From assembly GCA_964541595.1 (NCBI GenBank), contig CAZIRO010000001.1, forward strand, positions 1 through 46,189: a stretch of DNA of 46,189 nt, written 5' to 3'. This document shows, piece after piece, positions 5,832 through 46,053 of this stretch. Every line of letters begins with the position of its first letter. Position 1 is the first letter of the stretch. The stretch is from an uncultured Acidobacteriota bacterium (GTDB taxonomy: Bacteria > Acidobacteriota > HRBIN11). The notes under the pieces are model-generated. The model was not told where the DNA came from. It saw only the letters and a program-made list of their open reading frames with translations, and did not search any database. A program made the translations under genes and the position numbers.

Positions 5832-5908
5832 TGGTGCGCCTGGGGGGACTCGAACCCCCGACCCCGAGATTAGGAATCTCGTGCTCTATCCTGCTGAGCT
5901 ACAGGCGC
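5832..5908 (-). tRNA. tRNA-Arg (anticodon CCT)
   Basis: The reverse complement folds as a canonical cloverleaf. Acceptor stem GCGCCTG/CAGGCGC; D stem GCTC/GAGC; anticodon stem CGAGA/TCTCG with loop TTCCTAA; T stem GGGGG/CCCCC with loop TTCGAGT. CCA is encoded. Confidence 0.95.
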
Positions 5909-13952: not shown

Positions 13953-15161
13953 TCATACGCCGGACAACATGTGTCCGAGTTTGCGTTTCTTGGCCTGCAA
14001 GTATCGACGGTTCACCGCATTCGGCTGGATCTCAATGGGCACCCGTTCCACGATCTCCAGTCCGTATCCGTCCAGGGCGATGAACTTCGTGGGGTTGTTC
14101 GTCATCAACCGCATTTTCTTCACACCGAGACAACGCAAAATCTGCGCGCCGATACCGTAATCGCGGTGATCCGGTTTGAATCCCAGCGATCGGTTCGCTT
14201 CGACGGTATCCAGTCCCTGTCGGTCCTGTAATTCGTACGCGCGCAACTTGTTGAGCAAACCGATACCCCGGCCTTCATGGTTCATAATGTATAACAGCAC
14301 ACCCTCATCGGCCTCGGCGATCATTTCCAACGCGCGGTGCAACTGCTGTCCGCAATCGCACCGCATGGAATGGAACACGTCGCCGGTCAAACATTCTGAA
14401 TGGACCCGAACGAGTACCGGTCGTTCCGGAGCGATCTCCCCGCGCACAAGGGCGACGTGATGAGAATGATCGATGATATTTTCAAACGCATACAATCGAA
14501 ACGTCCCGTATGGTGTCGGCAGATCGACCTCAGCGACGACACGGACCAGACATTCCCGCTGCATCCGGTAGCGAATGAGATCGGCGACCGTGATCATCAG
14601 CAACCCGTGTTGTCGCGCGAACTCTTCCAGATCCGGTACCCGTGCCATGGTACCGTCTTCGTTCATGATCTCACAGATCACGCCGGCCGGATACAGCCCG
14701 GCGAGTCGACACAGGTCCACGGCGGCTTCCGTCTGACCCGCACGCTGGAGCACACCCCCCTCGCGTGCACGCAACGGGAATACATGTCCCGGACGTGCGA
14801 GGTCTTCCGGTTTCGTCCGCGGGTCGATCGCCGTCAGGATCGTCGTGGCACGGTCATACGCGGAAATGCCCGTCGTGACCTTATTCTTGGCCTCGATCGA
14901 CACACAGAACGCGGTGCCATACTGTGACGTGTTGTCCTGCACCATCAGGGGGATTTTCAGTTCATCCAATCGTTTCGGTTCCATTGCCAGACAGATCAGT
15001 CCACGCCCGTATTTGGCCATGAAGTTAATCGCTTCCGGCGTCACCTTTTCCGCTGCGATCATCAGATCGCCTTCATTTTCACGGTCCGCATCATCGACGA
15101 TGATGATCATTCGACCCGCACGCAGGGCTTCAATCGCTGCCTCGATGGTCGCGAAGGGCAT
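13953..15161 (-). CDS. ribBA: Bifunctional 3,4-dihydroxy-2-butanone-4-phosphate synthase / GTP cyclohydrolase II
   Basis: DRENEGDL and [26 protein letters not shown] (DHBPS). [21 protein letters not shown] and NHEGRGIGL (GCH II). Confidence 0.95.
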
Positions 15162-15777
15162 GTGCCACTCCTTGGAGAAACTCCAGGTAGGGTTGAACTA
15201 AAACATAGATGTATTTCCCGAGGATATCAAGTTCCACATTCACGGTATCGCCGACGTCCAGGTCACCGAGATTCGTATGCGCGAGTGTAAACGGAATCAG
15301 GCTGACGCGAAACGTATCCCTCGAGACACCCGCAACCGTCAGGGACACGCCGTTGATGGCGATACTGCCCTTCTCGACCACGAGCGGACGCCATTCCGCC
15401 GGTAACCGGTACACATGGTCCACATTTGCAGGACCCGTATACTTTTCCAGCAGTACCGTGGTCCCATCGACGTGTCCCTGCACCCAGTGTCCGCCCAGGG
15501 GCTGACTCGCCCGCAATGGCAGTTCGATGTTCACACGCCGACCGGGATACCAGGTTCCCACCGTGGTCCGCCGTTGCGTTTCCGGAACGACGTCCACCGT
15601 AATCATGCGGCCACGTCGTTGCGTAACGGTGAGACAGATCCCATCGAGGGCAATGGAATCGCCTTTCCGCAGCGATCGAGCAACCGTCTGCGGTAATGCT
15701 ATCCGCAACCGCAGGTTGCCTTCAGTATCCCTGCGTTCAACGACCGTACCACAACCGATCACGATGCCGGTGAACAT
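15130..15777 (-). CDS. ribE: Riboflavin synthase (alpha chain)
   Basis: MFTGIV..G.V start and duplicated lumazine-binding repeats ([11 protein letters not shown] / [11 protein letters not shown]). It overlaps ribBA by 32 nt. Confidence 0.92.
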
Positions 15778-15782
15778 ATGGC

Positions 15783-16631
15783 CTACCGGGTGCGCTGATA
15801 TATGGCGAGAATTTTCGGAGATACGAGATTGCGCAGCATCGGTTCAGTAAACCAGTCGGGTAACCGGCGGACCTTGCGGAAGTACGCCCGTGCCCGTTGA
15901 ATCAGCGCCGGATCGCGTTCCCTGCCGGCATAAAACTCCGCTGCCAGACTGCATCCCATCAAAAAGTATGCCGTATCATCGAGGCGGTAACGGCCTTCAA
16001 GATCCGCAAGCAGTTGAAACGCTTGACGATACTTCCCGGTGGCATAGTACTGGATCGCCTGAACGAGAAACGCGCGCGGAACGAGTGGTGGGGGCGGTGG
16101 TTCCGGGGCGGGTTTCGGGGGTGCGGATGCCGACGGCGGAGACTCCGGTTGTTCCGGTTGCGCCGGCGGTGGCGGTGCGGTGTGTTCCGGTTCGGCGGGC
16201 GGTTGCGGTTCCGGAGTCTCCCCTTCCGCAGGCGCGGGTTGCGTGGCACACGCCTGCACGATCTCCTGACGTAACTGTTGCCGCTGTTCATACATGCGGT
16301 GCCCGCTCGGGATCCCGTCCTTCTGGTAGGACAGCGTGAGATACCGTCTGGCCTCTTCGCACTGATGCAACATCAAATACGCCCTGGCCAGATAGAAGTA
16401 CGGGAAAAACTCCCGGAAAAACATCCCATACGTCCGCCGTTTGGGACCGGGCGCCGGTCCCTTTTCGATCGCCTGTTGCAGTTGCACAATGGCCTCTTCC
16501 GCATTGCCCTCATTCAGGCGGTCGATCCCCAGTTTATAGTGCTGGTACCACTCCATATCCGCCCATACGGGCAGTGCACTCAGGACAACCATCAGTCCGA
16601 TTCCCAGCACACCGATCGACCATCGGTTCAT
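15783..16631 (-). CDS. Secreted TPR-like protein with Pro/Glu-rich central linker
   Basis: Signal peptide MNRWSIGVLGIGLMVVLSALPVWA. TPR-like helices flank the PAPAEGETPEPQPPAEPE... linker. ATGA overlap (16628-16631) with the kinase gene. Confidence 0.7.
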   Translation of the reverse strand: MNRWSIGVLGIGLMVVLSALPVWADMEWYQHYKLGIDRLNEGNAEEAIVQLQQAIEKGPAPGPKRRTYGMFFREFFPYFYLARAYLMLHQCEEARRYLTLSYQKDGIPSGHRMYEQRQQLRQEIVQACATQPAPAEGETPEPQPPAEPEHTAPPPPAQPEQPESPPSASAPPKPAPEPPPPPLVPRAFLVQAIQYYATGKYRQAFQLLADLEGRYRLDDTAYFLMGCSLAAEFYAGRERDPALIQRARAYFRKVRRLPDWFTEPMLRNLVSPKILAIYQRTR

Positions 16632-18496
16632 GGACCCGACTCCGAAAGACGCTGAATGATGCTCTGGAGTTGTTTCTCAACGGTGGCGACACGTCCAGAT
16701 GCAACGGTCACTTCGATCGTCTCGCTGCGTCCGAGTGCCGGATGGGAGTACCGGATCCGATACCGTCCCGGAGGCACTTTCGGAATCCACAACGGCGTAT
16801 ACGGCGGTTGCGGCACATTCACAAGGGTCCCGTCCGACACGCGACGAATCTCCTCAATCCTGGCCCACGGCAGGATATTGATATACATCTGTCCCGGTGG
16901 TAGCGGAGGCGCGACCGGCGGAGAGGTCTCCTGCGGCTCAACAGGCGGTGGCGCAGTCGATGTTTCCGTTTCCTTTGCGGGGGGTTCCGGTTTCGGCGGC
17001 TCGGGAGACCGGGGTTCCGGCGATGGTTCGGCCGTTTCGGATTCGGTACCCGTACCGGGAGACACCGGGGTGGATTCCGGCGCAGATTCGGTGGGACTGG
17101 CGGGTTCAACGTTCACCGGAGCCGATTCCGGGGTCTTCACGGACGGCCGATCCGGTATCTGCGGTTGCTGTTCCGATTTCGGGGAACCCGTGGACGCCGT
17201 CTGCACCGTAGTTTCCTGCGGCCAGTAGCGGTATACGAGTACGGCGGTCACCACGCCGGCAAACAGCAGGGCCAGAAAAATGGCCATTCCCGTCCAGTTG
17301 AACCACACGGCGGACGCACGGGCGGTGGTTGCACGCGGTCGTGCATAGATCTCCGACGGCGTTGGTACGGAACGTGATGGACCCGTCGTCGCGATCCGTG
17401 TGGGTTGCGCGGATACGGACGGCTGCGCACCCTGCGGTCGTTGCGGTGCCGGCGGGGATTCCGGAGCGGCCGGCACGGTCGGAGACGCGGGTGCGGATGG
17501 GGACGCGGCCGTCGGGGGTTCCAACGGAGAGGACGGTTCCGGCGGGTGCTGCGTTTTCGTCGGCGTCACGGACGGTTCCGGCGGGAGGATCACCGTCGGG
17601 GGCAGTTCCGGTTCGGGACGGGTCTCCGTTAAGAGGGTTTCCCGTTCGGAACGCAATACATCCAGGATGTGCTGAATGGCCTGCGCCATCTCCTGAGCGG
17701 ATGCATACCGGTCCTCGATCCGTTTCGCAATGGCTTTCTCAACGATGGCCCGGATTTCGTCCAGATGCGGAATGGCCAGGGACTCGTCCAGCGGTTCCGG
17801 CGGTTCATGGACGATCTTGTAAAACACCGTGGTGTAATGTTCCCCCTGGAAGGGACGTTTATACGCCAGTAACTCGTACAGAACCACACCCAGCGAAAAA
17901 ATGTCCGTATGCGGTCCGATCTTGTCCCGTTCACCCCGGATCTGTTCAGGCGCCATGTAATGCGGCGTGCCCATGATGATTCCGGTCTGCGTGAAATGAG
18001 TCGCCCCCATTTTGGCAATACCGAAATCCATAATCTTGACCACACCGTCGTCCAGCACGCGAATATTCGCCGGTTTGATGTCCCGATGCACGATACCGTG
18101 CGCATGCGCATATGCCAGGGCTTCACACGCCTGCCGAATAATATCCAGTTTCTCTTCCAGACTGATGGGCAACCGTTTCCGAATGATCTCATCCAGATCC
18201 CGGCCCTCGAGATATTCCATAGCAATATACGGCACGCCGTTTTCTTCACCGAGATCGTAGATCGTCACGATATTCGGGTGCCGCAACCGACCGGCGGATT
18301 GCGCCTCGCGAATGAACCGTTCTTTGAGGACCCGGTCTTCAGCAAGATCGGGGAGCATGACTTTCAGGGCAACGTCGCGTCCGATGAACGGATCATACGC
18401 GTGGTAGACGCGTCCCATCCCACCTTTTCCGAGCAGTCGTTTGATGACATATTTTCCGATACGTTCCGGAAGTTTTCCCTGCTGCGCATTGGCCAT
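16628..18496 (-). CDS. Hanks-type Ser/Thr protein kinase with one TM helix and a C-terminal extracytoplasmic PEGA-like beta domain
   Basis: GKGGMGRVY, VALKVM, HRDIKPANI, DFGIAK and GTPHYMAPE. TM helix MAIFLALLFAGVVTAVLVY. The C-terminus reads INILPWARI...GRYRIRYSHPALG..ETIEVTV. Confidence 0.92.
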   Translation of the reverse strand: MANAQQGKLPERIGKYVIKRLLGKGGMGRVYHAYDPFIGRDVALKVMLPDLAEDRVLKERFIREAQSAGRLRHPNIVTIYDLGEENGVPYIAMEYLEGRDLDEIIRKRLPISLEEKLDIIRQACEALAYAHAHGIVHRDIKPANIRVLDDGVVKIMDFGIAKMGATHFTQTGIIMGTPHYMAPEQIRGERDKIGPHTDIFSLGVVLYELLAYKRPFQGEHYTTVFYKIVHEPPEPLDESLAIPHLDEIRAIVEKAIAKRIEDRYASAQEMAQAIQHILDVLRSERETLLTETRPEPELPPTVILPPEPSVTPTKTQHPPEPSSPLEPPTAASPSAPASPTVPAAPESPPAPQRPQGAQPSVSAQPTRIATTGPSRSVPTPSEIYARPRATTARASAVWFNWTGMAIFLALLFAGVVTAVLVYRYWPQETTVQTASTGSPKSEQQPQIPDRPSVKTPESAPVNVEPASPTESAPESTPVSPGTGTESETAEPSPEPRSPEPPKPEPPAKETETSTAPPPVEPQETSPPVAPPLPPGQMYINILPWARIEEIRRVSDGTLVNVPQPPYTPLWIPKVPPGRYRIRYSHPALGRSETIEVTVASGRVATVEKQLQSIIQRLSESGP

Positions 18497-18776: not shown

Positions 18777-19565
18777 TCACCCGGTATCCGCGTTCCGTTC
18801 GATCTGGATCAGGACCACGGTAATATTGTCCGGTCCCCCGCGATCGTTCGCCGTCTGGATCAGATTGGCCACGGCTGCCTGAAGATCCGGCATATGCCGA
18901 TGGATCACATCGGCGATCTCCACATCGTCCAGTACCCCACTGAGGCCGTCCGTACAGAGCAACAGCAGATCTCCGGGTTCGAGGGGCTCCTCACCGATAT
19001 CCACCACGGGTTCCTGCGGTCCACCCAGGGCACGGGTCACGACATTGCGGAACGGATGGCTGCGGGCTTCTTCGGCGGAAATCAATCCCACCCGAATCTG
19101 TTCATTGACCCAGGAATGGTCCTGTGTCAACTGGATGATCCGTCCGCGCCGGATCAGATACCCGCGACTGTCGCCCACGTGTGCGATGATCGCCGATTCC
19201 ATTTCCGGATCGATCTTGGCCACCACGGCTGTCGTGGCCATTCCCTGCCATTCCGGATTTTCCCGGGTGGCTTCCAGGATCCTCTGATGCGCCATCAGCA
19301 TCGCGGCACGCAACATGTCTTCCGTACGTGCGGACGGATCCGTGATCCCTCCCGGCCAGGTGATGTCCAGATCTTCGTCAGCAGACCGCATGAACGCCAG
19401 GATCGTATCGACGGCAATCCGGGAAGCCTGTTCACCGGCAGCATGTCCCCCCATCCCATCCGCCACAATAAAAATCCCGCGTTTATCGTCAAAACCCCAG
19501 TAGTCCTCATTCTTGGAACGACGCCGACCGACGTCCGTCGCTCCACAAAACCGCCAGCGAATCAT
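18777..19565 (-). CDS. PP2C-family Ser/Thr protein phosphatase
   Basis: GATDVGRRRSKNEDY, VADGMGGHAAGE, LLLCTDGLSG and GGPDNITVVLI. Confidence 0.92.
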   Translation of the reverse strand: MIRWRFCGATDVGRRRSKNEDYWGFDDKRGIFIVADGMGGHAAGEQASRIAVDTILAFMRSADEDLDITWPGGITDPSARTEDMLRAAMLMAHQRILEATRENPEWQGMATTAVVAKIDPEMESAIIAHVGDSRGYLIRRGRIIQLTQDHSWVNEQIRVGLISAEEARSHPFRNVVTRALGGPQEPVVDIGEEPLEPGDLLLLCTDGLSGVLDDVEIADVIHRHMPDLQAAVANLIQTANDRGGPDNITVVLIQIERNADTG

Positions 19566-28400: not shown

Positions 28401-29690
28401 CTAAAACCGATACAACAACAGGGTATCCAGCAGCGGTTTGAACGATTCGTCCCCGATCTGGCGGAAGATCACGCCGCCCCGGATGCGCATAAACAACCGG
28501 GGTGAAACGGGCCATTCGATTTCGATATGTGTGAAATTGTCCGCATACCGGAATCCCGAACGGCTCGGCAACCACTGATAAACCCGTGCCTGGGTGTGTA
28601 CACGCACCTGCACGCTACGGACGATCGTTATCAGCGCCGCATCCACGGTATAGAAATTCGTGTAATCGCTCCGGATGGCCTGTCCCCCGAGTTCAAGCCG
28701 AAACCATTTCCATTTCGGGGAACGCACCCATCCCGTGGCGATCCATCCGGAACGCACACCGCGCATATACCCGAACGACCCCCGCACGGCCCATTGACGT
28801 GTCCGAATCCCGACGACCGCCCGCAGATCACGAAACGTCGACGGTGGCGTTTCTGCGAACCGTCCGAAATAGGTCAATGTACGTACCTCGTCATAGACCC
28901 GCAACTGTTCCCAGGGATTTCGCCATTCCGACGCCATGAGACTGACGTAAACACGAGCACCGCGTACGGACACCTGCGCGGTGACACGTGTGCGGTCACG
29001 AATTTCCAGATCGTAGGCACCACCGACAAACACCCAGACGCGTCCCCGGGGGTTCCAGTGGATCTGCATCCCGATCTCCCGGGTTGTCCGCTGTTCCGTC
29101 GCGAGATGGACAAACCCGACCGACCACTGTAACCGGGAGGACGTCCAGCCCACGTTCCCGCACAACTGCACGCCGCCGCTGAGCGGTGCCCCGTGCCAGA
29201 TATCGATCGGACGACCCCCGGCGGCCCGTACCTGCCAGTGACCGACACGGACTTCCGTCCAGGCACCGTCCATCGGGTGGATCAATACACCGGCGACGTC
29301 TGGATACTGGCGTCCCAATCGCACGTTGACGTGATGGTTCGCAAGGCCGGCGATCTCAAGGTACGCGGTATGAAAGATGTGGCGGTTGCGGTAGGCCTCT
29401 GTGTAGATGAACTCTTCCGGTCGGCTCAGCTGGATATAGTGATGACTCCGATAGACCACCCGGATCCGATCGTTCCAGAATCCCAGTCGCAGGCGTCCCG
29501 TCAGGTGAAATCCGTTGTACTGTGTCGCCTGCACTGCAGATCCGATGAACCGGTAGTGCAGGTTGATGTACCCCTGCGCGATGACCCCCGACGGTGCGAT
29601 ATTCCCCTGCGCAACTGCCGTCGCGATCGGTATGGTCCATACGAGCCAGGCAATACCGATCAGACGCATCCATTCGCGCGCGGTCATCAT
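28401..29690 (-). CDS. Outer-membrane beta-barrel protein (429 aa), candidate porin partner of the adjacent multihaem cytochrome
   Basis: Signal peptide MMTAREWMRLIGIAWLVWTIPIATAVA-QG. Alternating-hydrophobicity strands throughout. The C-terminus ...LLLYRF ends in an aromatic residue. Its ATG (29688-29690) overlaps the TGA (29687-29689) of the cytochrome gene. Confidence 0.65.
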   Translation of the reverse strand: MMTAREWMRLIGIAWLVWTIPIATAVAQGNIAPSGVIAQGYINLHYRFIGSAVQATQYNGFHLTGRLRLGFWNDRIRVVYRSHHYIQLSRPEEFIYTEAYRNRHIFHTAYLEIAGLANHHVNVRLGRQYPDVAGVLIHPMDGAWTEVRVGHWQVRAAGGRPIDIWHGAPLSGGVQLCGNVGWTSSRLQWSVGFVHLATEQRTTREIGMQIHWNPRGRVWVFVGGAYDLEIRDRTRVTAQVSVRGARVYVSLMASEWRNPWEQLRVYDEVRTLTYFGRFAETPPSTFRDLRAVVGIRTRQWAVRGSFGYMRGVRSGWIATGWVRSPKWKWFRLELGGQAIRSDYTNFYTVDAALITIVRSVQVRVHTQARVYQWLPSRSGFRYADNFTHIEIEWPVSPRLFMRIRGGVIFRQIGDESFKPLLDTLLLYRF

Positions 29691-31990
29691 CCGCCCTCCT
29701 CTCCTTCGATTTCGAATCCACCGATATGACAATCCAGGCACCGGCCGCCACGGTCACCGGCATGGCCCCTGTGACAGTCGTGACAGGTATACTGAAACAT
29801 GTCTCCGGCGACCTTATGGCATACCGCACAGGCAATTCCCGCGTGAGTTCCGGTTTGCAGATTGAACCAGAACGGACTGTGCGCACCCTGCCACTTGTCC
29901 TGCAGGTGGCACTCCTGACAGTTCAAGCCGGCACCGTAGCGTGCATGCGGAAACGTTGCCGTGCGATAGTGTTTCTCATGACAGTCCGCACACTGCATGG
30001 GACGCGGGATGATCCGAAACGTCTGAACGTCGCGATGGCAATCGCCGCATTCCAGTGCCAGATGCGCGCCGACGAGCGGGAATCCCGTTTCCGCGTGGTC
30101 GAATGATACGACTCTCCATGCCGGCCAGCGGTGACACCGGTAACAGTCTGCCCCCATCGCGCCTTCATGGTAGTCCGTATGACAACTCGTGCAGTTCGTG
30201 GAAGCAGCGGTAAACCGGTGCTGCAAATGACACTGATTGCACCGAATGAGCGTGTGGAACACGAACAGGTCTTTCCGTTCATGGGTGTACTTCAACTGAT
30301 CCCAGGGCCCCGTGGGATCGTGGCAATCCGTACAGGCCATACGCAATGTCGGTTCGTGCGGACTCGTATGGCAACTATCGCATGCCGGTCGCAACTTCGT
30401 TTGCCAGTCCGTATGACAGGCGCGGCACGCGATCTCGGCGTGTCTGCCGGTCAGCGGAAACCCCGTCCGCGTATGGTCAAACGCCGTCGGCGGCCATCCC
30501 TCTGTGGAATGGCACCGCGCGCAGTTCTGACCGAACTGACCGTGATGCGGATCGCTGTGACAGTCCCGACACCGGATGCCCCGTACTCGGTATCCCGGCG
30601 GCATATGACACTGCGTGCACTGCACCTGCAGATGTCTGCCGGTCAGCGGGAATTTCGTCTGCGCGTGATCGAATGTGACCGCCGTCCACACGGTTTCCGC
30701 ATGACACCGGGTACAGTCCTGACCGAACGCACCCCGGTGCGGATCGGCATGACAGAGTTGACAATCACGCCCCGGCAGGTGCAACCCACCGCGTTCCTCC
30801 GTATGACACTGGCGACACTGTAGATCGAGGTGTGCACCCCGCAGGACAAACCCGGACACCCGGTGGTCGTATGTCGGAACGGACCACGCATCGAACATGT
30901 GACACGCGGTGCAGTCGCGGTATGCGACAACACGGCGGGGGTGCGGGGAACGGTGACAGCCGTCACAGGTGGTCGCGAGTTTCCGGCGGATTCCCATCCT
31001 GTGACACTCCTGACAGGCGATCATTGCGTGTTTCCCCAGTAACGGAAACCCCGTACGCGCGTGGTCGAACTGCTGCACGGTCCAGGTGCGTGTCGTGTGA
31101 CAGCGGGTACAGTCGGGGATCCGGATCCGCCGATGCGGATTCGTATGGCACCCCTGACACTGCAACGGTGTCCCCCGAAACCGATGCCCCGCATGACACC
31201 GCATACAGGTCAGCCGCCGATGCGCGCCCGTCAGTGGAAACCGGGTCCGATCGTGGTCAAACCCGGGGATCTCCACGAACGACGTCTCCACATGACAGTC
31301 CCGGCATCGCTGAGGCCGGAACTGACCCCGATGCGGATCCCGATGGCAACCGATACAGTCATCAAACCGTACGGACGCTTTGAACTGCGTGAGCGTCTGG
31401 CGATGACATTTTGCACAATCCACACGCACATGCGCACCACGCAGCGGGAACCGGGTTTGCCCGTGGTCGAACGATACGGGGGACCACGCCACTGTTGTAT
31501 GACAACCCGTACAGTCCGCGCCGAACCGCATGCCGTGTTTCGGCGCGTGACACGCATGACAGTCCGTGGGTGTGCCGAGGTATCGTGCCTTGCGGTGGCA
31601 CCGTGCACACGCGACATCAACGTGCGCCCCCGTCAGCGGGAAATCCGTTTGACGGTGATCGAAGGTCTCCGCATCCAGACGAACGAGTTGATAGTCCCGT
31701 CCCCGATGCTCGCTATGGCATTCCCAGCAGACCTGGTCTTTCGGGAGTCGACCGTGAAAACCGGTTCGATTGCGGACATCCTGTGCAACGGGTTCGTGAC
31801 AGGCCAGACACTTTTCGACCGCAGGACCGCGGCCGAATTCATGACATTTCGTGCAGTTGGTCACGCCGCGCAGTTTTTCATGGGGACGGGCCAGTTCACC
31901 CGGGGCGATCCACTGCGTCCACGCGATACGGGATATACCCAGACTCCATACAATGATCATCCAGCAGGTGCCACGCCACCTGGCGGCCAT
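29687..31990 (-). CDS. 33-haem c-type cytochrome built from ~11 tandem trihaem (c7/c3-like) modules
   Basis: I counted 33 CxxCH motifs in 767 aa. The unit FDH..T.FPL.G.H....C..CH-x11-C..CH..PH.G.F...C..CH....W recurs 8-9 times. The N-terminus is a hydrophobic signal-like segment. Confidence 0.92.
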   Translation of the reverse strand: MAARWRGTCWMIIVWSLGISRIAWTQWIAPGELARPHEKLRGVTNCTKCHEFGRGPAVEKCLACHEPVAQDVRNRTGFHGRLPKDQVCWECHSEHRGRDYQLVRLDAETFDHRQTDFPLTGAHVDVACARCHRKARYLGTPTDCHACHAPKHGMRFGADCTGCHTTVAWSPVSFDHGQTRFPLRGAHVRVDCAKCHRQTLTQFKASVRFDDCIGCHRDPHRGQFRPQRCRDCHVETSFVEIPGFDHDRTRFPLTGAHRRLTCMRCHAGHRFRGTPLQCQGCHTNPHRRIRIPDCTRCHTTRTWTVQQFDHARTGFPLLGKHAMIACQECHRMGIRRKLATTCDGCHRSPHPRRVVAYRDCTACHMFDAWSVPTYDHRVSGFVLRGAHLDLQCRQCHTEERGGLHLPGRDCQLCHADPHRGAFGQDCTRCHAETVWTAVTFDHAQTKFPLTGRHLQVQCTQCHMPPGYRVRGIRCRDCHSDPHHGQFGQNCARCHSTEGWPPTAFDHTRTGFPLTGRHAEIACRACHTDWQTKLRPACDSCHTSPHEPTLRMACTDCHDPTGPWDQLKYTHERKDLFVFHTLIRCNQCHLQHRFTAASTNCTSCHTDYHEGAMGADCYRCHRWPAWRVVSFDHAETGFPLVGAHLALECGDCHRDVQTFRIIPRPMQCADCHEKHYRTATFPHARYGAGLNCQECHLQDKWQGAHSPFWFNLQTGTHAGIACAVCHKVAGDMFQYTCHDCHRGHAGDRGGRCLDCHIGGFEIEGEEGG

Positions 31991-31993
31991 GGT

Positions 31994-34063
31994 TCATACT
32001 CCCGGCAGTGCGATACGCATGAGTTCAACGAACACGTCTCGACCGACGAAGAGGTATACCAGTCCCATATGCACAAAAAAGAGAGCAACCAGTGTCCACG
32101 CCAGCGTGCGATGAACGACTCGCCAGCGGCCCATCAGGTTCTGTACCGCCTTGATGATGGCGATCCAGTACGCGCGTTTGGCCATCTGACGGGTCAGTTG
32201 CTGGACCATATGCACGCGTTGCGCGTCTTCCGGCCGGTAGTTCGTCCGCAGGAATTCACGGACCGTATACAGCACGATCGCATATTTCAGATCGACCAAC
32301 ACCAACCGTGGCAGGACCCGCAACCCCTGTTTACCTTTGATCACACCGGTGTACTGGCGCGAGTCGATGATCGCGAGGATACCGTCCAGCGGGGCCTGCA
32401 ATTCGCGCAACCGACGTGCGATCGCATCGAACTCACTGTTCAATTCCCGCAGGCTTTTAATATGGCTTCCCATACTTTTTGGAATATGCGCATAAATATA
32501 CCTTCCGATCAATCCGGTGGCCACGACGACCAGGAGTCCGTAATAGGCCACCGCCAGGATGCGACTGACGTGAAACGCTGAATGGAACGTCAGTACCAGC
32601 CAGGCCGTGATGCCGGTCATCATGTGGAAGTCCAGCCAGCGATCCAGTGGTCCGGAACGGAAAATGCGTTTCTGTTTGCGCAGCAGGTATGAGAAATTGA
32701 AAAAGATCATGATCGCGCCGATCAACCCGAGGGTATGGCCGATCGTGCCACGCGACCGCAGGATGTCGTCGTACGGATGCGTGGGACGGTCGTGGAACGG
32801 CAGGGAGTAATAGTCATACCCGATCGCCATCAACCAGCCGACGCCGATAATGAGACAGAGTCCCCACAGGAAGATCAACGCCGACCACCAGTGTGTCTTC
32901 CAGTACCGGAGCGAAAAGACTTCCGGTCGCAACCAATCCGGTACGCGCACAACCCGTTCAGCCATGGCATCCTCCGATTGCCGGGATGATTCCACCGATG
33001 CGGTCGATGGCTCCACCGTTGAGGGGGCCGCGGGAGGCGCTGTCGGGGTCGCCACATCCAGTGATACGGACCCGGTGTGCACATCGTCCGACGCAGTGGT
33101 CTCCTGCAGGATCGGAGGAGTCTGGATCGTTTTCTGACGTGCCACTTCATTCAACGGTCGTTCGCCGATCCCGTGCAACAGCATCTGTTCACGCAGTTCG
33201 GGATGCTGCTGCCGAAACCGTGCGGCGACGACCTCGAGATCGCGTAATACCGCACGGGCACTGCCGTACCGCGTCTCCGGATCCTTGGCCAGTGCACGCA
33301 TCACGATCCGTTCAAGGTCCTCCACAAACGGCAGATCCGGCGCAACCGTCGATAGCCGCGGCGGATCTTCATGCACGATCTTGTACGCCACCGCCGTCGG
33401 GTGTTCGCCCTCAAACGGCCGGTGATACGTCATGAGTTCAAAGAGCACCACACCGAGCGCAAAAATGTCCGTACGGTGGTCGATGCGTTCTTTTTCGTCC
33501 CGAACCTGTTCTGGACTCATGTAATGCGGGGTCCCCATGAGCACCTGTGTCTGTGTGAACCGCTCACTGACGAGTTTGGCTACACCGAAATCCATGACTT
33601 TGACCCGACCATCCGGAAGGATCCGGATGTTCGAGGGTTTGATATCACGGTGAATGACTCCATGCGCATGGGCATACGCCAGCGCATCGCACACCTGCAT
33701 GAGGATGTGCATTTTCTGTAAAAACGGTATCGACACCCGCTGCTCGATCAGTTCCGAAAGGTTGTGTCCCGGTAGATACTCCATTGCGATAAACGGCTGG
33801 CCCTCATGTTCCCCCACGTCATAAATGGCCACAATATTCGGATGGTGTAACCGGCCGGCGGCACGTGCTTCGCGAATAAACCGGGCACGAATTTTGTCAT
33901 CAAACGCAAGTTCCGGACGGATGATCTTGATGGCGATCGTGCGGTCGATCGCCGGATCGTACGCAGCCAGGACGATTCCCATCCCCCCATAGCCGATGAC
34001 CGTTTCTACACGATACCGCCCGATCCGTGTGGGAATGGCCGTTTGCGACCGGGAATCGGTCAT
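31994..34063 (-). CDS. Hanks-type Ser/Thr kinase fused to a C-terminal polytopic membrane module with two H-x13-H helices
   Basis: Kinase motifs are GYGGMGIV, IAIKII, HRDIKPSNI, DFGVAK and GTPHYMSPE. After a Pro/Ala/Ser linker come ~5 TM helices. His480/His494 sit in DFHMMTGITAWLVLTFH and His651/His665 in VVHRTLAWTLVALFFVH. The stop lies 3 nt before the 33-haem gene start. Confidence 0.9.
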   Translation of the reverse strand: MTDSRSQTAIPTRIGRYRVETVIGYGGMGIVLAAYDPAIDRTIAIKIIRPELAFDDKIRARFIREARAAGRLHHPNIVAIYDVGEHEGQPFIAMEYLPGHNLSELIEQRVSIPFLQKMHILMQVCDALAYAHAHGVIHRDIKPSNIRILPDGRVKVMDFGVAKLVSERFTQTQVLMGTPHYMSPEQVRDEKERIDHRTDIFALGVVLFELMTYHRPFEGEHPTAVAYKIVHEDPPRLSTVAPDLPFVEDLERIVMRALAKDPETRYGSARAVLRDLEVVAARFRQQHPELREQMLLHGIGERPLNEVARQKTIQTPPILQETTASDDVHTGSVSLDVATPTAPPAAPSTVEPSTASVESSRQSEDAMAERVVRVPDWLRPEVFSLRYWKTHWWSALIFLWGLCLIIGVGWLMAIGYDYYSLPFHDRPTHPYDDILRSRGTIGHTLGLIGAIMIFFNFSYLLRKQKRIFRSGPLDRWLDFHMMTGITAWLVLTFHSAFHVSRILAVAYYGLLVVVATGLIGRYIYAHIPKSMGSHIKSLRELNSEFDAIARRLRELQAPLDGILAIIDSRQYTGVIKGKQGLRVLPRLVLVDLKYAIVLYTVREFLRTNYRPEDAQRVHMVQQLTRQMAKRAYWIAIIKAVQNLMGRWRVVHRTLAWTLVALFFVHMGLVYLFVGRDVFVELMRIALPGV

Positions 34064-34231: not shown

Positions 34232-35149
34232 TCAGAAACGGTGGATGGTGTCCAGGAGATACCGATGATACCAGTCTCGTGCCGGTGGAAATCCCGTGCG
34301 TCCGGATGCCCGGGTGGTCAACGATTCGTCTTCCGCGTCGTCATCGTCGTCACCACCACCCTTGCACTCCTTCCCGGACCACTTGTCGCCGTGACACCTG
34401 TAACAGGACGGTTCCCCGTTCGGTCCGCCCCGCAAGTCCGCACCATGACACGGGGCACAGTCACGCTGGGGTTTACACCAGTCCTGCGCATGCGCCACAT
34501 TGTCTTCAATCTTGTTATGCTGCGTCTTCCCGCAGTTCATCCACTTCCGTTGATCGTGACACTGCAAACAGGACGGTTCCCCGTTCACACCGCCGCGCAG
34601 GTCGTCCCCATGACAACGGCCGCAGTTCTCATACGGCGAGCAGTACCCGGAAGCATGCATCGCGCCACCGAGATTCACATCGTGGGATGCATTCTGTCCG
34701 CAGGTGTTCCACAGGGCGCCGTGACACTGGAAACAGGACGGTTCCCCGTTCGCGCCACCTTTCAGATCCGCGCCGTGACAGGATGCACAGTTTTGCTGCG
34801 GGGAACAGTATCCGGCTGCATGCATCACGCCGTTGATGTTGACATCGTGGACCGCATTCTGTCCGCAGGTGTTCCATAGAGCGCCGTGACACTGCAAACA
34901 GGACGGTTCCCCGTTCGCGCCACCTTTCAGATCCGTACCATGGCAGGCCGCACAGTTCGCCTGGGGTTGACAGTACCCCTGCGCGTGATTAAACCCGCCG
35001 ATAACCACATCGTGCGGTGTCGGTTGTGCGCGGCCGGTCCCACCGGTACCGGCCTGCATCGGGTTGTCGACCTGAAAACACCCGACAAGCGTGATCAACC
35101 CGAACCCGCAACACATCCCCACAACGATCCACCGCAACATGCGTACCAT
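34232..35149 (-). CDS. Octahaem c-type cytochrome lipoprotein (4 x 54-aa dihaem tandem repeats)
   Basis: Lipobox LITLVG-C. There are 8 CxxCH motifs. The repeat unit is H.....G..HA.GYC.P..NC..CHG.DL.GG.NGEPSC.QCHG. SD GGAGAGGG lies upstream of the ATG at 35149. Confidence 0.88.
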   Translation of the reverse strand: MVRMLRWIVVGMCCGFGLITLVGCFQVDNPMQAGTGGTGRAQPTPHDVVIGGFNHAQGYCQPQANCAACHGTDLKGGANGEPSCLQCHGALWNTCGQNAVHDVNINGVMHAAGYCSPQQNCASCHGADLKGGANGEPSCFQCHGALWNTCGQNASHDVNLGGAMHASGYCSPYENCGRCHGDDLRGGVNGEPSCLQCHDQRKWMNCGKTQHNKIEDNVAHAQDWCKPQRDCAPCHGADLRGGPNGEPSCYRCHGDKWSGKECKGGGDDDDDAEDESLTTRASGRTGFPPARDWYHRYLLDTIHRF

Positions 35150-39713: not shown

Positions 39714-41768
<2,055 letters not shown>

Positions 41769-41904
41769 CACCGGCCTCCACAGGCGAGAGATGCAAATGC
41801 GTGTGCGGTATGGATCCAGCGGTACACAGCGCGGTGATATTCACCCGTACGTCCCATATGGTACACGATCCCATTCGGGTTGTCACGTGCACAATCCACC
41901 GCGG

Positions 41905-42734: not shown

Positions 42735-43382
42735 TCAGCCCAAATAAAATAGCAAACCGAACAGGTAGATCCAAACAATGTCCACAAAATGCCAGTACGT
42801 CGCCGCGAGTCCCACACCGGGGTGGTACGGCGTGTAGACCCCCCGACGCGCCCGCAGGAAAACGACGATCAGGGCCACAAGTCCGCCGAACAGGTGCAAT
42901 GCGTGGACCGCCGTCAACAGATAGAAAAACGAACTGTGCGGGTTCGTGGGCAGGTAAATGCCCTGTGCCTGCAATTGTCGCCAGGCGATATACTGCCCGA
43001 TGAGAAACACCAGCCCGAGTCCCGCGGTAATGAGCAACCACCGTTGCAGTGCTTCCGTCGCCCATCGTTTCAGTTGCCGCCGGGCTATCTCCATCGTCAC
43101 ACTGCTGGCGATGAGGATTACCGTATTGAACCACAGGATCGGAGGCATCCGGATCGGCTGCCAGTCAGCGCCGGCCCGGCGGGCGATATACGCACTGCTG
43201 AACCCCGCAAAGAGCATGGTCGCCGTCGCCAGAAAGGCCCACAACCCGATCTGTTTCGTATGAATGGGCAGTGCACCCTCGTTTTCGGGATAGGGCCCCT
43301 CACCGCCGTTACCGTTACCGTTCGTATCTACGGGCACGTCGAGACCGGATTCGCCGGTTCCCGAATGCACCCATCGGGTCAT
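42735..43382 (-). CDS. ctaE: Cytochrome c oxidase subunit III
   Basis: FYLLTAVHALHLFGG and TYWHFVDIVWIYLF. ATGA overlap with ctaD (43379-43382). Confidence 0.9.
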   Translation of the reverse strand: MTRWVHSGTGESGLDVPVDTNGNGNGGEGPYPENEGALPIHTKQIGLWAFLATATMLFAGFSSAYIARRAGADWQPIRMPPILWFNTVILIASSVTMEIARRQLKRWATEALQRWLLITAGLGLVFLIGQYIAWRQLQAQGIYLPTNPHSSFFYLLTAVHALHLFGGLVALIVVFLRARRGVYTPYHPGVGLAATYWHFVDIVWIYLFGLLFYLG

Positions 43383-45172
43383 GCGTGCACCTCGACACCG
43401 ACTTTTTCGGGTTCCAGATGCTGCGGAATGTGGTCGTCCGGTGCGCCGGGAACGCTGTATTCATACGGGCCACGGTACACCGCCGGTACCGGACCGTCCC
43501 AGTTGCCATGCGGCGCCGGAGATTCCGTGGTCCACTCGAGCGTGTTCGCCCGCCACGGATTCCGGTCCGCTTTCTTGCCCCTGAACATGCTCCAGAAGAA
43601 GTTGAACAGGAAGATGAACTGCGCCGCACCGAGGACAAACGCGCTGATACTGATCCAGACGTTCAGCGGTTGCAGGGGTTTGAGGAAATCGTACTGCGTG
43701 GGATCGTAGATCCGGCGCATCATACCGCCCATGCCGAGGTAGTACATCGGGAAGAACGTCGAATAGTACGTGATGAACGTCAACCAGAAGTGAATCTTGC
43801 CGAGCGTTTCGTTCATCATTCGCCCGAACATCTTGGGAAACCAGTAATACGTTCCAGCAAACACACCGAACAACGCCGCGCCGGCCATAATGAGATGGAA
43901 ATGACCGACCACAAAATACGTATCGTGCATCTGAATATCGATCGGCGGCTGTCCCAGCCAGAGACCGCTCAGGCCACCGCTGATGAACAGTGACACGATA
44001 CCCAGCGCAAACAGCATGGGCGTTGTAAACCGGATCCGCGCCCGCCACAGGGTCGTCAACCAGTTGAACACCTTGATCGCCGACGGGACGGCGATCAACA
44101 GGGTGAACGTGGCAAACGCCATACCGAGATAGGGACTCATCCCGCTGACGAACATGTGGTGGCCCCAGACGAGAAAACTGAGCACCGATATCGCCCAGAT
44201 CGCATAGACCATTGACTTATAACTGAAGATCGGTTTCCGGCTGAAGACGGTAATGATATCCGAGGTGATCCCCATGGCCGGGAGCATCAGGATGTACACT
44301 TCCGGATGTCCGAGAAACCAGAACAGATGCTGCCATAACAGCGGGGACCCGCCCTGTGTGGTCAAACCCTGCTGGATCTCCACCACGTGTCCACCGATGT
44401 ACAGTCCCTGCGGGAGGAAGAAACTCGTGCCCAGATGCCGGTCAAAGAGTAACATGATCGCACCTGCCGTCAGTGCGGGAAACGAAAGCAGTCCCAGAAT
44501 GGCGACACAGAACAGCGCCCAGGTCGTCAACGGCAACCGCATCATCGACATGCCCCGCGTGCGCAGGTTGAGCACCGTCGTGACAAAATTGAGTCCCCCC
44601 ATGGTAAACGATGCGATGAAAAAGACCATCCCGATGATCCATAGCGTCTGTCCCAACCCCGATCCGGGGATGGCTTCCCGCAAAGCACTCAACGGTGGAT
44701 ACGCCGTCCATCCGGCAGCGGCTGCTCCGCCCTCCACAAAGAAGGACGAGAGAATGACAATGCAGCCGATAAAGAAGGTCCAGTACGACAGCATGTTCAG
44801 GAAGGGAAACGCCATGTCGCGCGCACCGATCTGCAACGGGATCAGGAAGTTGCCGAACCCGCTCACCGGTGCGGTCGACAGTACAAAGAACACCATCAGG
44901 GTCCCATGCATGGTAAACAGCATGGGATAAAACTCGGGTTTCATCAATCCCGTCTGCAGATCAAACCCGGCCGGAAGCAACTTGGCAAGCCAGGTCTGTC
45001 CCAGTTGCGGCCACGCGAGTTGAATACGGATCAGCATCGCAAGCAAACCGGCGACGATGGCCATAAAGATCGCCGTAATGTAATACTGTTTGGCAATGAC
45101 CTTATGGTCCATGCTGAAGACATATTTTCGAATGAAACTCTGCGGTTCCGTGTGATGGTTGTGTTGCGCCAT
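43379..45172 (-). CDS. ctaD: Cytochrome c oxidase subunit I (haem-copper oxidase, A-family)
   Basis: WFLGHPEVYILMLPAMG, GHHMF and HDTYFVVGHFH. The start is placed at the ATG (45170-45172) 4 nt after GGAGGG; longer in-frame starts are at 45184 and 45208. Confidence 0.95.
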   Translation of the reverse strand: MAQHNHHTEPQSFIRKYVFSMDHKVIAKQYYITAIFMAIVAGLLAMLIRIQLAWPQLGQTWLAKLLPAGFDLQTGLMKPEFYPMLFTMHGTLMVFFVLSTAPVSGFGNFLIPLQIGARDMAFPFLNMLSYWTFFIGCIVILSSFFVEGGAAAAGWTAYPPLSALREAIPGSGLGQTLWIIGMVFFIASFTMGGLNFVTTVLNLRTRGMSMMRLPLTTWALFCVAILGLLSFPALTAGAIMLLFDRHLGTSFFLPQGLYIGGHVVEIQQGLTTQGGSPLLWQHLFWFLGHPEVYILMLPAMGITSDIITVFSRKPIFSYKSMVYAIWAISVLSFLVWGHHMFVSGMSPYLGMAFATFTLLIAVPSAIKVFNWLTTLWRARIRFTTPMLFALGIVSLFISGGLSGLWLGQPPIDIQMHDTYFVVGHFHLIMAGAALFGVFAGTYYWFPKMFGRMMNETLGKIHFWLTFITYYSTFFPMYYLGMGGMMRRIYDPTQYDFLKPLQPLNVWISISAFVLGAAQFIFLFNFFWSMFRGKKADRNPWRANTLEWTTESPAPHGNWDGPVPAVYRGPYEYSVPGAPDDHIPQHLEPEKVGVEVHA

Positions 45173-45195
45173 GGCACCCTCCATATATGGACGGC

Positions 45196-46053
45196 CTATT
45201 CCGTGCACAGCGTCAGCGTATCGAATTGAAAGTCTTTCGGATACTGTTGCAATACCGATGCGGGGATGGTCAGTGTGGTCATCATGGAGCGAAACTCTTC
45301 TGACGGCAAAACGTATACAAACCCCCGCATCCGGTAATGGCCGAGGCCACAGTGTTCTGCACAGGCGATCTCAAACTTGCCCACCCGCGTCGGCGTGAAC
45401 CATACATGCACGGTCATCCCGGGGACGGCATCCTGTTTGAATCGGAACGGCGGAACAAAGAAACTGTGCAGTACATCCCGGGACCGGATCTGCAGATGCA
45501 CGGGACGGTTCACCTCGAGGAACAACTGGTTCTGCAAACAGATATCGTCCTCGGCCGCGGGATCGTCGAAATCGATGCCGATGAAGTTGTACTCCTGATC
45601 ACTGATGAACTTCGGATCCGTTCGACCGAACCGACCGTCGGCCCCCGGATACCGGATATTCCATTGAAACTGCTGTCCGACGATTTCCACCACGAGGGCA
45701 TCCTGCGGCGGCGGAGTATACAACCGCGCCCACAGGCGAAGTGCCCCGAAAACGAGTATGCTCAGGATCAGGGCCGTCACCGCCGTCCAGGTGATCTCCA
45801 GACGCGGATTGTCCGGAAAGTAATGCGCACGCGTCTGCGCGTCCGCACGGTATTTCCAGGCGAACCACCCGAGCAGAATGTGGGTGAAAATGAAGGCAAT
45901 CCCCGTAATGATCAGGGTGGCACGGATAAACGTGTCCAGTGTCGCCCGATCCGAGGCGAGTTCCGGAAACCACGGGTGCGTGAATGCCCAGACCACAAGG
46001 AGAATAAACAAAAACACCGTTCCGGCAAACATACCGGCCTGCACACGATTCAT
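45196..46053 (-). CDS. ctaC: Cytochrome c oxidase subunit II (CuA, no fused cytochrome c domain)
   Basis: Two N-terminal TM helices. CuA motif HSFFVP...CAEHCGLGHYRM. ATG at 46051-46053 is preceded by GGAGGGTGGGGT. Confidence 0.92.
   Translation of the reverse strand: MNRVQAGMFAGTVFLFILLVVWAFTHPWFPELASDRATLDTFIRATLIITGIAFIFTHILLGWFAWKYRADAQTRAHYFPDNPRLEITWTAVTALILSILVFGALRLWARLYTPPPQDALVVEIVGQQFQWNIRYPGADGRFGRTDPKFISDQEYNFIGIDFDDPAAEDDICLQNQLFLEVNRPVHLQIRSRDVLHSFFVPPFRFKQDAVPGMTVHVWFTPTRVGKFEIACAEHCGLGHYRMRGFVYVLPSEEFRSMMTTLTIPASVLQQYPKDFQFDTLTLCTE

Follow-up and report, generated by a model that had tools for sequence, protein, structure and literature searches.

An apparent fusion of a Hanks-type kinase to a predicted di-haem membrane module in a multihaem cytochrome cassette of an uncultured Acidobacteriota bacterium

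We analysed a stretch of 46,189 nucleotides (nt) from an uncultured Acidobacteriota bacterium (HRBIN11; assembly GCA_964541595.1, contig CAZIRO010000001.1), which we will henceforth refer to, in its whole length, as the window. One of its genes, lying among genes for multihaem cytochromes, encodes a protein (identical to the deposited protein P0007) in which a Hanks-type Ser/Thr kinase domain is followed by a linker and then by a membrane module with five transmembrane (TM) helices and four histidines (Table 1). We found that these four histidines are essentially invariant across the family to which the module belongs and that genes of this family adjoin genes for multihaem cytochromes in all seven contexts inspected and, in many relatives, are joined to redox flavoproteins. 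The explanation that we favour, with a probability of about 0.6, is that a di-haem b module for electron export acquired a paralogous kinase domain. Taken by itself, the module is probably a di-haem cytochrome, with haem binding predicted from its histidines and its gene context.

Four histidines at two membrane levels

The initial annotation of the segment 31997-32911, which encodes residues 385-689 of the protein, had proposed that about five TM helices follow the kinase and its linker, and that two of these helices each carry a pair of histidines separated by exactly 13 residues. Both pairs are found in the translation in the contexts that it quoted, namely LDF-H-MMTGITAWLVLTF-H-SAF for H480 and H494 (codons at 32624-32626 and 32582-32584) and RVV-H-RTLAWTLVALFFV-H-MGL for H651 and H665 (codons at 32111-32113 and 32069-32071). 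The five helices are supported by hydropathy and by an AlphaFold2 (AF2) model of the module built from 58 homologues, with a mean predicted local distance difference test (pLDDT) score of 88 and a predicted template modelling (pTM) score of 0.76, in which helices span residues 386-419, 440-456, 473-495, 501-525 and 611-673. The loop at residues 458-472 carries 5 Lys or Arg and no acidic residue, and the insertion between the fourth and fifth helices carries 20 Lys or Arg. The predicted topology fits an N-terminus on the cytoplasmic side, as the N-terminal kinase requires. Given such a topology and five TM helices, TM3 and TM5 would run parallel, both from cytoplasm to periplasm, with H480 and H651 towards the inner side of the membrane and H494 and H665 towards its outer side. 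Two bis-His pairs on parallel third and fifth helices, with 12-13 residues between the histidines, are also what characterises the ferric reductase domain (FRD).

By itself, the H-x13-H spacing is weak evidence, because shuffling the module 100,000 times produced on average 0.41 such pairs, with P(≥2) = 0.059 and P(≥3) = 0.0056, and because the kinase domain also has one chance-like pair (H86/H100). The module, which is part of a His-rich protein, actually holds three pairs, the third being H429/H443. What decides is conservation, which we assessed in 270 family members aligned to the family hidden Markov model (HMM), including 148 representatives of 50%-identity clusters. Histidine was found at the position of H480 in 269 of the 270 members and at that of H494 in all of them, while every ungapped sequence had histidine at H651 (264/264) and at H665 (263/263). 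The spacing within both pairs was exactly 13 residues in every member of this family, whose sequences are 20-60% identical, and all four histidines were likewise invariant in alignments of 7 and of 58 sequences (23-60% identity). The expectation that the four histidines would be conserved among homologues was thus borne out with the spacing fixed. In TM4, the GRYIY motif is also strongly conserved: G520, R521 and Y524 are invariant in the family alignments, and Y522 and I523 almost so. The only other module histidines with any conservation were H443 (82% of members) and H429 (63%); this third pair (32735-32779, minus strand) has one member in the periplasmic loop and the other where TM2 begins, and might provide a further contact for a metal or haem, or a site for cytochrome docking.

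The C-terminal 320 or so residues belong to a large family of inner-membrane proteins for which neither Pfam nor NCBIfam has a model. When 1.84 billion representatives were searched with a profile, 2504 matched at E ≤ 1e-10, of which 609 reached E ≤ 1e-30, and 4343 matched at the looser threshold of E ≤ 1e-3. In most cases the protein stands alone, is about 286 residues long and is annotated as hypothetical, and many members come from metagenome-assembled genomes (MAGs) of Bacteroidota. A match of the module to a non-haem family would have told against the haem proposal of the initial annotation; the Pfam matches that did recur in the family, all of them below threshold, were to haem-b families only. 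Specifically, DUF4405 was weakly matched by 39 of 58 and 26 of 86 members (best E 2.8e-6; P0215 scored 26.2 bits against a cut-off of 26.7), Ferric_reduct by 16 of 86 (weak, best E 1.5e-5) and Ni_hydr_CYTB by 14 of 58. The window protein itself had no match to DUF4405, and its matches to the other two stayed below the cut-offs: Ferric_reduct (PF01794) scored 14-15 bits against a gathering score of 28 (E 0.019-0.046), over residues 447-503 only, and Ni_hydr_CYTB (PF01292) scored 19.5 bits against 30.1, over residues 642-669 only (E 8.8e-4 for the module alone).

Among known systems, the FRD superfamily (NOX/DUOX, STEAP, Fre, MsrQ/YedZ; PF01794) resembles the module in several ways: two non-adjacent, parallel TM helices each bear two histidines about 13 residues apart, for an inner and an outer haem; relatives of the module are fused to an FAD/NAD(P)H dehydrogenase, so that electrons would pass outward from NAD(P)H in the cytoplasm; and the weak Ferric_reduct match covers TM2-TM3. 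By contrast, the module has five rather than six TM helices and a cytoplasmic helical insertion of about 120 residues between the fourth and fifth; its dehydrogenase is N-terminal or separate and of TrxR/YpdA type with 2x[4Fe-4S], instead of a C-terminal FNR-type domain; its acceptor appears to be a multihaem cytochrome c; and Foldseek found no match to solved NOX, STEAP or MsrQ-type structures. DUF4405 (PF14358), described as a six-TM protein, has been purified and shown to bind haem b; its four central histidines are its most conserved residues and were described as a core in common with MsrQ-like and PepSY-like cytochromes, and it is a proposed transmembrane electron carrier (PMC11334425). 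The module likewise has four conserved histidines, and DUF4405 is the most frequent weak match of its family, but these matches cover the last helix only, and the described association of DUF4405 is with flavinylation (ApbE) and not with multihaem cytochromes. Prokaryotic cytochromes of the b561/Ni_hydr_CYTB group (FdnI, HyaC, CybB; PF01292) also carry H-x13-H on their last TM helix. In these proteins the histidines are spread 1+1+2 over four helices, whereas those of the module are arranged 2+2 on two, and the match is below cut-off.

Two further comparisons made by the initial annotation fared less well. Likeness to cytochrome b of the bc1/b6f complexes holds for the H-x13-H spacing, which is the same, and ends there, with no Cytochrome_B, PDB-sequence or fold match. 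The suggested resemblance to PepSY-associated TM helices of FoxB-type reductases found no support: the window protein has no PepSY_TM match at E ≤ 1, and this family is absent from those recurring in the sets of 58 and 86 relatives.

Putative redox partners of the module family and of the window gene

Gene context is the strongest functional evidence for the module, and it was overlooked by the initial annotation: the module is the inner-membrane component of a conserved cassette of multihaem cytochromes. Among the 36 best-scoring representatives longer than 330 residues, 24 have an N-terminal Pyr_redox_2/3 flavoprotein domain, and 17 of those also have 2x[4Fe-4S] Fer4, giving a typical fused architecture of iron-sulphur (FeS) flavoprotein and module of about 745 residues. 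In Bacteroidota, a standalone module gene is followed by a gene for a 445-residue protein with Fer4 and a YpdA/TrxR-like flavoprotein domain, and then by one for a multihaem cytochrome c. At locus L001, a fused or adjacent FeS-flavoprotein and module are followed by 17-haem and 10-haem cytochromes; this locus also has a kinase near the module, which has only the kinase domain in common with the window protein. Altogether, a cytochrome with 12-33 CxxCH motifs adjoins the module in all seven contexts inspected.

Two Bacteroidota loci (L005, 7001-10329, and L007, 7001-13465) show this arrangement as a compact three-gene unit of module, 445-residue flavoprotein and multihaem cytochrome with faint similarity to an MtrC domain. 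The unit at L007 then continues with a 7-haem cytochrome and a 530-residue protein ending in KRF. The three-gene unit appears to be an undescribed cassette for electron export.

In the window, the kinase-module gene is flanked by genes for two multihaem cytochromes, and a fourth gene encodes a secreted protein. The upstream 8-haem lipoprotein contains four near-identical repeats of the form CxxCHGxDLxGGxNGEPSCxxCHG, and a DDDDD run about 35 residues before its C-terminus. The downstream cytochrome has a hydrophobic N-terminus, possibly a signal peptide. Its 33 haems are unusually many for a cytochrome, and the window example is uncharacterised. The 446-residue secreted protein has no Pfam or NCBIfam match; it is probably the outer-membrane beta-barrel of a conduit.

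The same four genes occur in the same order in an Acidobacteriota MAG (L004) and on two metagenome contigs (L002 and L003). Identity to the L004 proteins is 59% for the 8-haem lipoprotein, 54% for the module, 51% for the 33-haem cytochrome and 31% for the 446-residue protein, whose L004 counterpart also ends in YRF. The 33-haem cytochrome is kept in all three loci, again with 33 motifs. There the module stands alone, with 318-323 residues and no kinase, and the window cassette is orthologous to this kinase-less Acidobacteriota cassette. A search for related loci with a single protein recovered L004 as its sole genome locus; the other two loci recovered, L008 and L009, are distant and come from metagenomes. 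As to the electron donor of this clade, the partner may be encoded elsewhere, or electrons may come from menaquinol.

This set of proteins may be comparable to the porin-cytochrome (Pcc/Ext, Mtr) conduits that work with the inner-membrane entry proteins CymA, ImcH or CbcL, in that the cassette would combine a giant, putatively periplasmic multihaem cytochrome, a multihaem lipoprotein, a putative barrel and an inner-membrane redox protein. It differs from them in that the inner-membrane component comes from another, unannotated family, often with its own NAD(P)H-type dehydrogenase. None of the cassette proteins matches the curated Pcc/Mtr models, faint MtrC-domain matches being confined to the Bacteroidota neighbours. 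Scans for promoters and terminators gave results at chance level only.

The kinase domain and its junction with the module

The kinase domain matches Pkinase (PF00069) with 175.1 bits against a cut-off of 31.7, and a PknB-type NCBIfam model with E 5e-105 over residues 15-302. All catalytic residues are present (G24-Y-G-G-M-G29, K46, E65, H138-R-D140, N145, D158-F-G and S183-P-E), and the activation loop contains T170-Q-T172. The gene starts at an ATG preceded by AAGGGGGA, and the proportion of G and C at third codon positions (GC3) is similar in its kinase and module parts.

The nearest kinase relatives, 55-57% identical, are canonical: a Pro-rich linker leads to one TM helix, and an extracellular domain follows. 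The window protein shares with such PknB/PrkC-type membrane kinases a cytoplasmic N-terminal kinase, a TQT activation loop and a disordered, Pro-rich linker leading to a membrane segment. Unlike the canonical form, seen in the closest relatives P0291, P0294 and P0306 and in a second kinase of the window, it has a five-TM, four-His module instead of a single TM helix with an extracellular sensor, and its gene lies in a cytochrome operon and not beside a PP2C gene. That second kinase is 77% identical to P0294, and its domain is 52% identical to the fused one, which we therefore consider a diverged paralogue from the same lineage. The second kinase is likely the parent paralogue of the fused domain, and the PP2C phosphatase encoded next to it is a candidate phosphatase for both. 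We also asked whether relatives encode the kinase as a separate gene beside their cassette. The closest kinases, P0294 and P0306, have unrelated PP2C/TPR surroundings, and the genes upstream in the window bear no relation to these loci.

The initial annotation had suggested that such a fusion would be a new type of signalling protein, and as regards architecture this stands, since no second case appeared in the searches run. In a search of 5.8 billion clusters with the full-length protein, the protein itself scored 1565 bits and all other matches were kinases covering at most 56% of the query; residues 291-384, the linker, were covered by no homologue. No kinase was found in the long family representatives that were scanned individually, and the 25 families most often met in the census include none. 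Two surveys of bacterial Ser/Thr kinase architectures mention no cytochrome or haem partner, and we found no description in the literature of the module family or of a kinase-cytochrome b fusion, an absence that is in itself no proof of novelty.

The linker is the fusion junction, and it is marked by an in-frame ATG (M367) with a GGAGG at 5-nt spacing. M367 lies 25 residues before TM1, in agreement with the N-termini of the standalone homologues P0001 and P0002, which suggests that the module gene originally began here.

Table 1. Features of the window around the kinase-module gene and its paralogue (coordinates in nt; TM, transmembrane helix; ORF, open reading frame).
Feature	Coordinates	Strand	Description or basis
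446-residue secreted protein	28401..29741	-	signal peptide; C-terminus YRF; sequence
767-residue c-type cytochrome	29687..31990	-	33 CxxCH; c7/c3-like repeats; downstream of kinase-module gene after 3-nt gap
Kinase-module gene	31994..34063	-	689 residues; unbroken ORF: Hanks kinase, linker, five-TM four-His module
TM5 (residues 645-674), in to out	32042..32131	-	H651 cytoplasmic side, H665 periplasmic side
Cytoplasmic helical insertion, basic (residues 526-644)	32132..32488	-	AF2 helices, 20 Lys/Arg
TM4 (residues 501-525)	32489..32563	-	AF2 and alignments; GRYIY motif at its end
TM3 (residues 473-496), in to out	32576..32647	-	H480 cytoplasmic side, H494 periplasmic side
TM2 (residues 440-457), out to in	32693..32746	-	hydropathy and AF2; H443 at periplasmic start
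TM1 (residues 391-415), in to out	32819..32893	-	hydropathy and AF2 helix
Juxtamembrane linker (residues 291-384)	32912..33193	-	composition; rich in Pro/Ala/Ser/Thr
Internal ATG (M367, 32963-32965) with GGAGG (32971-32975)	32963..32975	-	sequence; in frame, 5-nt spacing
Hanks-type Ser/Thr kinase domain (residues 17-270)	33254..34015	-	Pkinase profile and catalytic motifs
8-haem c-type lipoprotein cytochrome, upstream	34232..35149	-	8 CxxCH; Cytochrom_c3_2/C7; lipobox LVGC
Canonical Hanks kinase	16628..18496	-	622 residues; single TM; 77% identical to P0294
PP2C phosphatase gene	18777..19565	-	upstream of and adjoining canonical kinase gene

Several other parts of the window are worth recording. 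Its first 5908 nt have a GC content of 0.49-0.51, against about 0.58-0.61, include a 919-residue ORF resembling a primase/helicase (Toprim and AAA_25; 84-2843) and end at a tRNA-Arg(CCT) gene (5832-5908, minus strand). This region looks like a mobile element integrated at a tRNA gene; no integrase was seen inside the window. The contig with the cytochrome cassette also carries two genes of riboflavin biosynthesis, ribBA (13953-15161) and a riboflavin synthase of the lumazine-binding type (15130-15777), on the minus strand; flavins serve as electron shuttles in some systems of extracellular electron transfer. An H+-translocating pyrophosphatase (39714-41771, minus strand) and subunit I of a haem-copper oxidase (43379-45208, minus strand) are also encoded nearby, and the organism is therefore no strict anaerobe limited to metal respiration.

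Competing explanations and significance

In the explanation that we favour, the module would hold two b haems about 21 Å apart, one towards the cytoplasm with H480 and H651 as its ligands and one towards the periplasm with H494 and H665. Fourteen residues along a helix span roughly this distance and bring the second histidine back to almost the same side of the helix, an arrangement known from cytochrome b, NOX and FdnI. In most relatives, a cytoplasmic oxidoreductase with 2x[4Fe-4S] and FAD/NAD(P)H, fused or adjacent, would give electrons to the module, which would hand them to periplasmic multihaem cytochromes c, a NOX-like logic put to extracellular electron transfer. In the window, electrons would go outward to the 33-haem cytochrome and then to the outer-membrane conduit. 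The basic cytoplasmic insertion, kept in most family members and shorter in a few such as P0225, may dock the electron donor. A duplicated, PknB-like catalytic domain with a disordered linker would have been grafted onto the cytoplasmic N-terminus of the module, which would then stand where ordinary kinases carry a single TM helix and an extracellular sensor. As the likeliest consequence, kinase activity would follow the redox or occupancy state of the conduit, or the kinase would phosphorylate the cytoplasmic face of the conduit, or its partners, to gate the flow. We thus infer haem binding, the direction of electron flow and the redox coupling of the kinase, and the last of these we put forward tentatively, as somewhat more likely absent than present.

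A number of observations weigh against this explanation. No model reached its curated Pfam cut-off for the window module (15-19 bits against 28-30). A Foldseek search of the module model against the PDB gave a best E-value of 1.3, amid noise from BAR-domain, AcrB and coiled-coil structures. On the suspicion that the insertion masked the TM core, we also modelled P0225, a natural member with a short insertion (223 residues, pLDDT 87.6), and its best E-value was 1.2. No haem protein was among the 50 best Foldseek matches listed for either model, and profile and sequence searches of PDB chains yielded nothing relevant. The Foldseek comparison that the initial annotation had called for was negative, in that neither confident model retrieved a solved di-haem protein. 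Given these negative searches, membership of the FRD, b561 or DUF4405 folds is unproven, and with five TM helices against six in FRD or DUF4405 the module may have a distinct five-helix arrangement. For the proposed bis-His membrane redox module with two sites, the invariant histidines, the parallel helices and the redox neighbours hold, while a profile above cut-off and a fold match are missing. As for the fusion, it is a singleton on one metagenomic contig; stops interrupt the other reading frames of the linker, so one indel that went unnoticed there would break the ORF in two; and the module might also, or only, be translated separately from M367. Finally, no gene for an FeS-flavoprotein was found in the cassettes of the window clade (the window, L002, L003 and L004, on short contigs).

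This last point, together with the weak Ni_hydr_CYTB match at TM5, would suit a module that is a quinol-oxidising or quinone-reducing cytochrome b, of FdnI/HyaC type or like the b domain of Geobacter CbcL, connecting the menaquinone pool to the multihaem cytochromes, with a kinase that reports the redox state of the quinone pool or conduit. We regard this as unlikely: fusions to a cytoplasmic FeS/FAD enzyme recur elsewhere in the family, the window clade has kept the conserved cytoplasmic insertion, no quinone-site motif was identified, and on such short contigs the partner gene could lie elsewhere. That the four histidines instead bind non-haem iron, copper or zinc, in a metal transporter or sensor that carries no electrons, would agree with the lack of significant sequence or fold matches to solved haem proteins. 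Yet two pairs of histidines 14 positions apart on parallel helices provide one site per membrane leaflet, the recurrent weak Pfam matches are all to haem-b families, and the partners are electron-transfer proteins with no transporters among them, which makes this very improbable. Cytochrome b, NOX and FdnI hold their two haems in this standard way, with one bis-His site per leaflet.

Other doubts concern the fusion rather than the haems. A singleton architecture on one contig, the ribosome-binding sequence and ATG at M367, and linker frames in which one indel would separate the genes could all reflect an assembly or sequencing artefact, with a truncated, soluble kinase gene standing beside a separate module gene. 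The frame is nevertheless open throughout the linker, both flanks are syntenic with L004, composition is uniform and the kinase is paralogous to another on the same contig; a split ORF would still leave a kinase gene with no TM helix of its own within the cytochrome operon, immediately before the module. An artefact is accordingly improbable, and we hold with high confidence that the fusion is real. A real fusion could still mean little for signalling if the module is di-haem but the kinase is merely tethered, using it as a membrane anchor near the electron-transfer machinery, or if the fusion is a recent, near-neutral accident and the module is made mainly from M367. Such a view draws on the same rarity of the fusion, on the retention of GGAGG and ATG at the ancestral start, and on the closest homologues, which do without a kinase in the same cassette. 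It is distinctly unlikely in our judgement, considering that all catalytic residues are intact, that the ORF is unbroken and has its own Shine-Dalgarno sequence, and that the kinase has diverged to 52% identity with its paralogue without decay, which argues for maintained function.

With these alternatives weighed, a di-haem b export module that acquired a paralogous kinase domain is the best reading of the data. Its fullest version joins two propositions: that the module family is a hitherto unrecognised, widespread, NOX-like and quinone-bypassing entry to extracellular electron transfer, running from NAD(P)H through FAD/FeS and two b haems to multihaem cytochromes, and that the window protein is the first Hanks kinase with an intramembrane di-haem wire as its sensor, phosphorylation being driven by, or gating, flux through the 33-haem conduit. 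Both together seem doubtful to us.

Bis-His di-haem membrane wires are already known, as are haem-based sensor kinases in general; nearly all bacterial examples known so far are histidine kinases that bind haem in soluble PAS/GAF domains or in domains of c type. What is new is a family without curation that seems to give multihaem-cytochrome cassettes their inner-membrane entry, the NOX-like pairing of this family with an FeS-flavoprotein, and a Hanks kinase whose sensor is replaced, apparently uniquely, by a four-His module. If the favoured explanation is true, a family of at least several hundred 50%-identity clusters without a model would gain a testable function as the membrane step of quinone-independent electron export in Bacteroidota, Acidobacteriota and other uncultured lineages, with a bearing on how these organisms reduce minerals or dispose of excess reductant. 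A Hanks kinase on an intramembrane di-haem module would likewise represent a new type of input for Ser/Thr signalling, and would offer a natural handle on how cells monitor flux through extracellular electron conduits.

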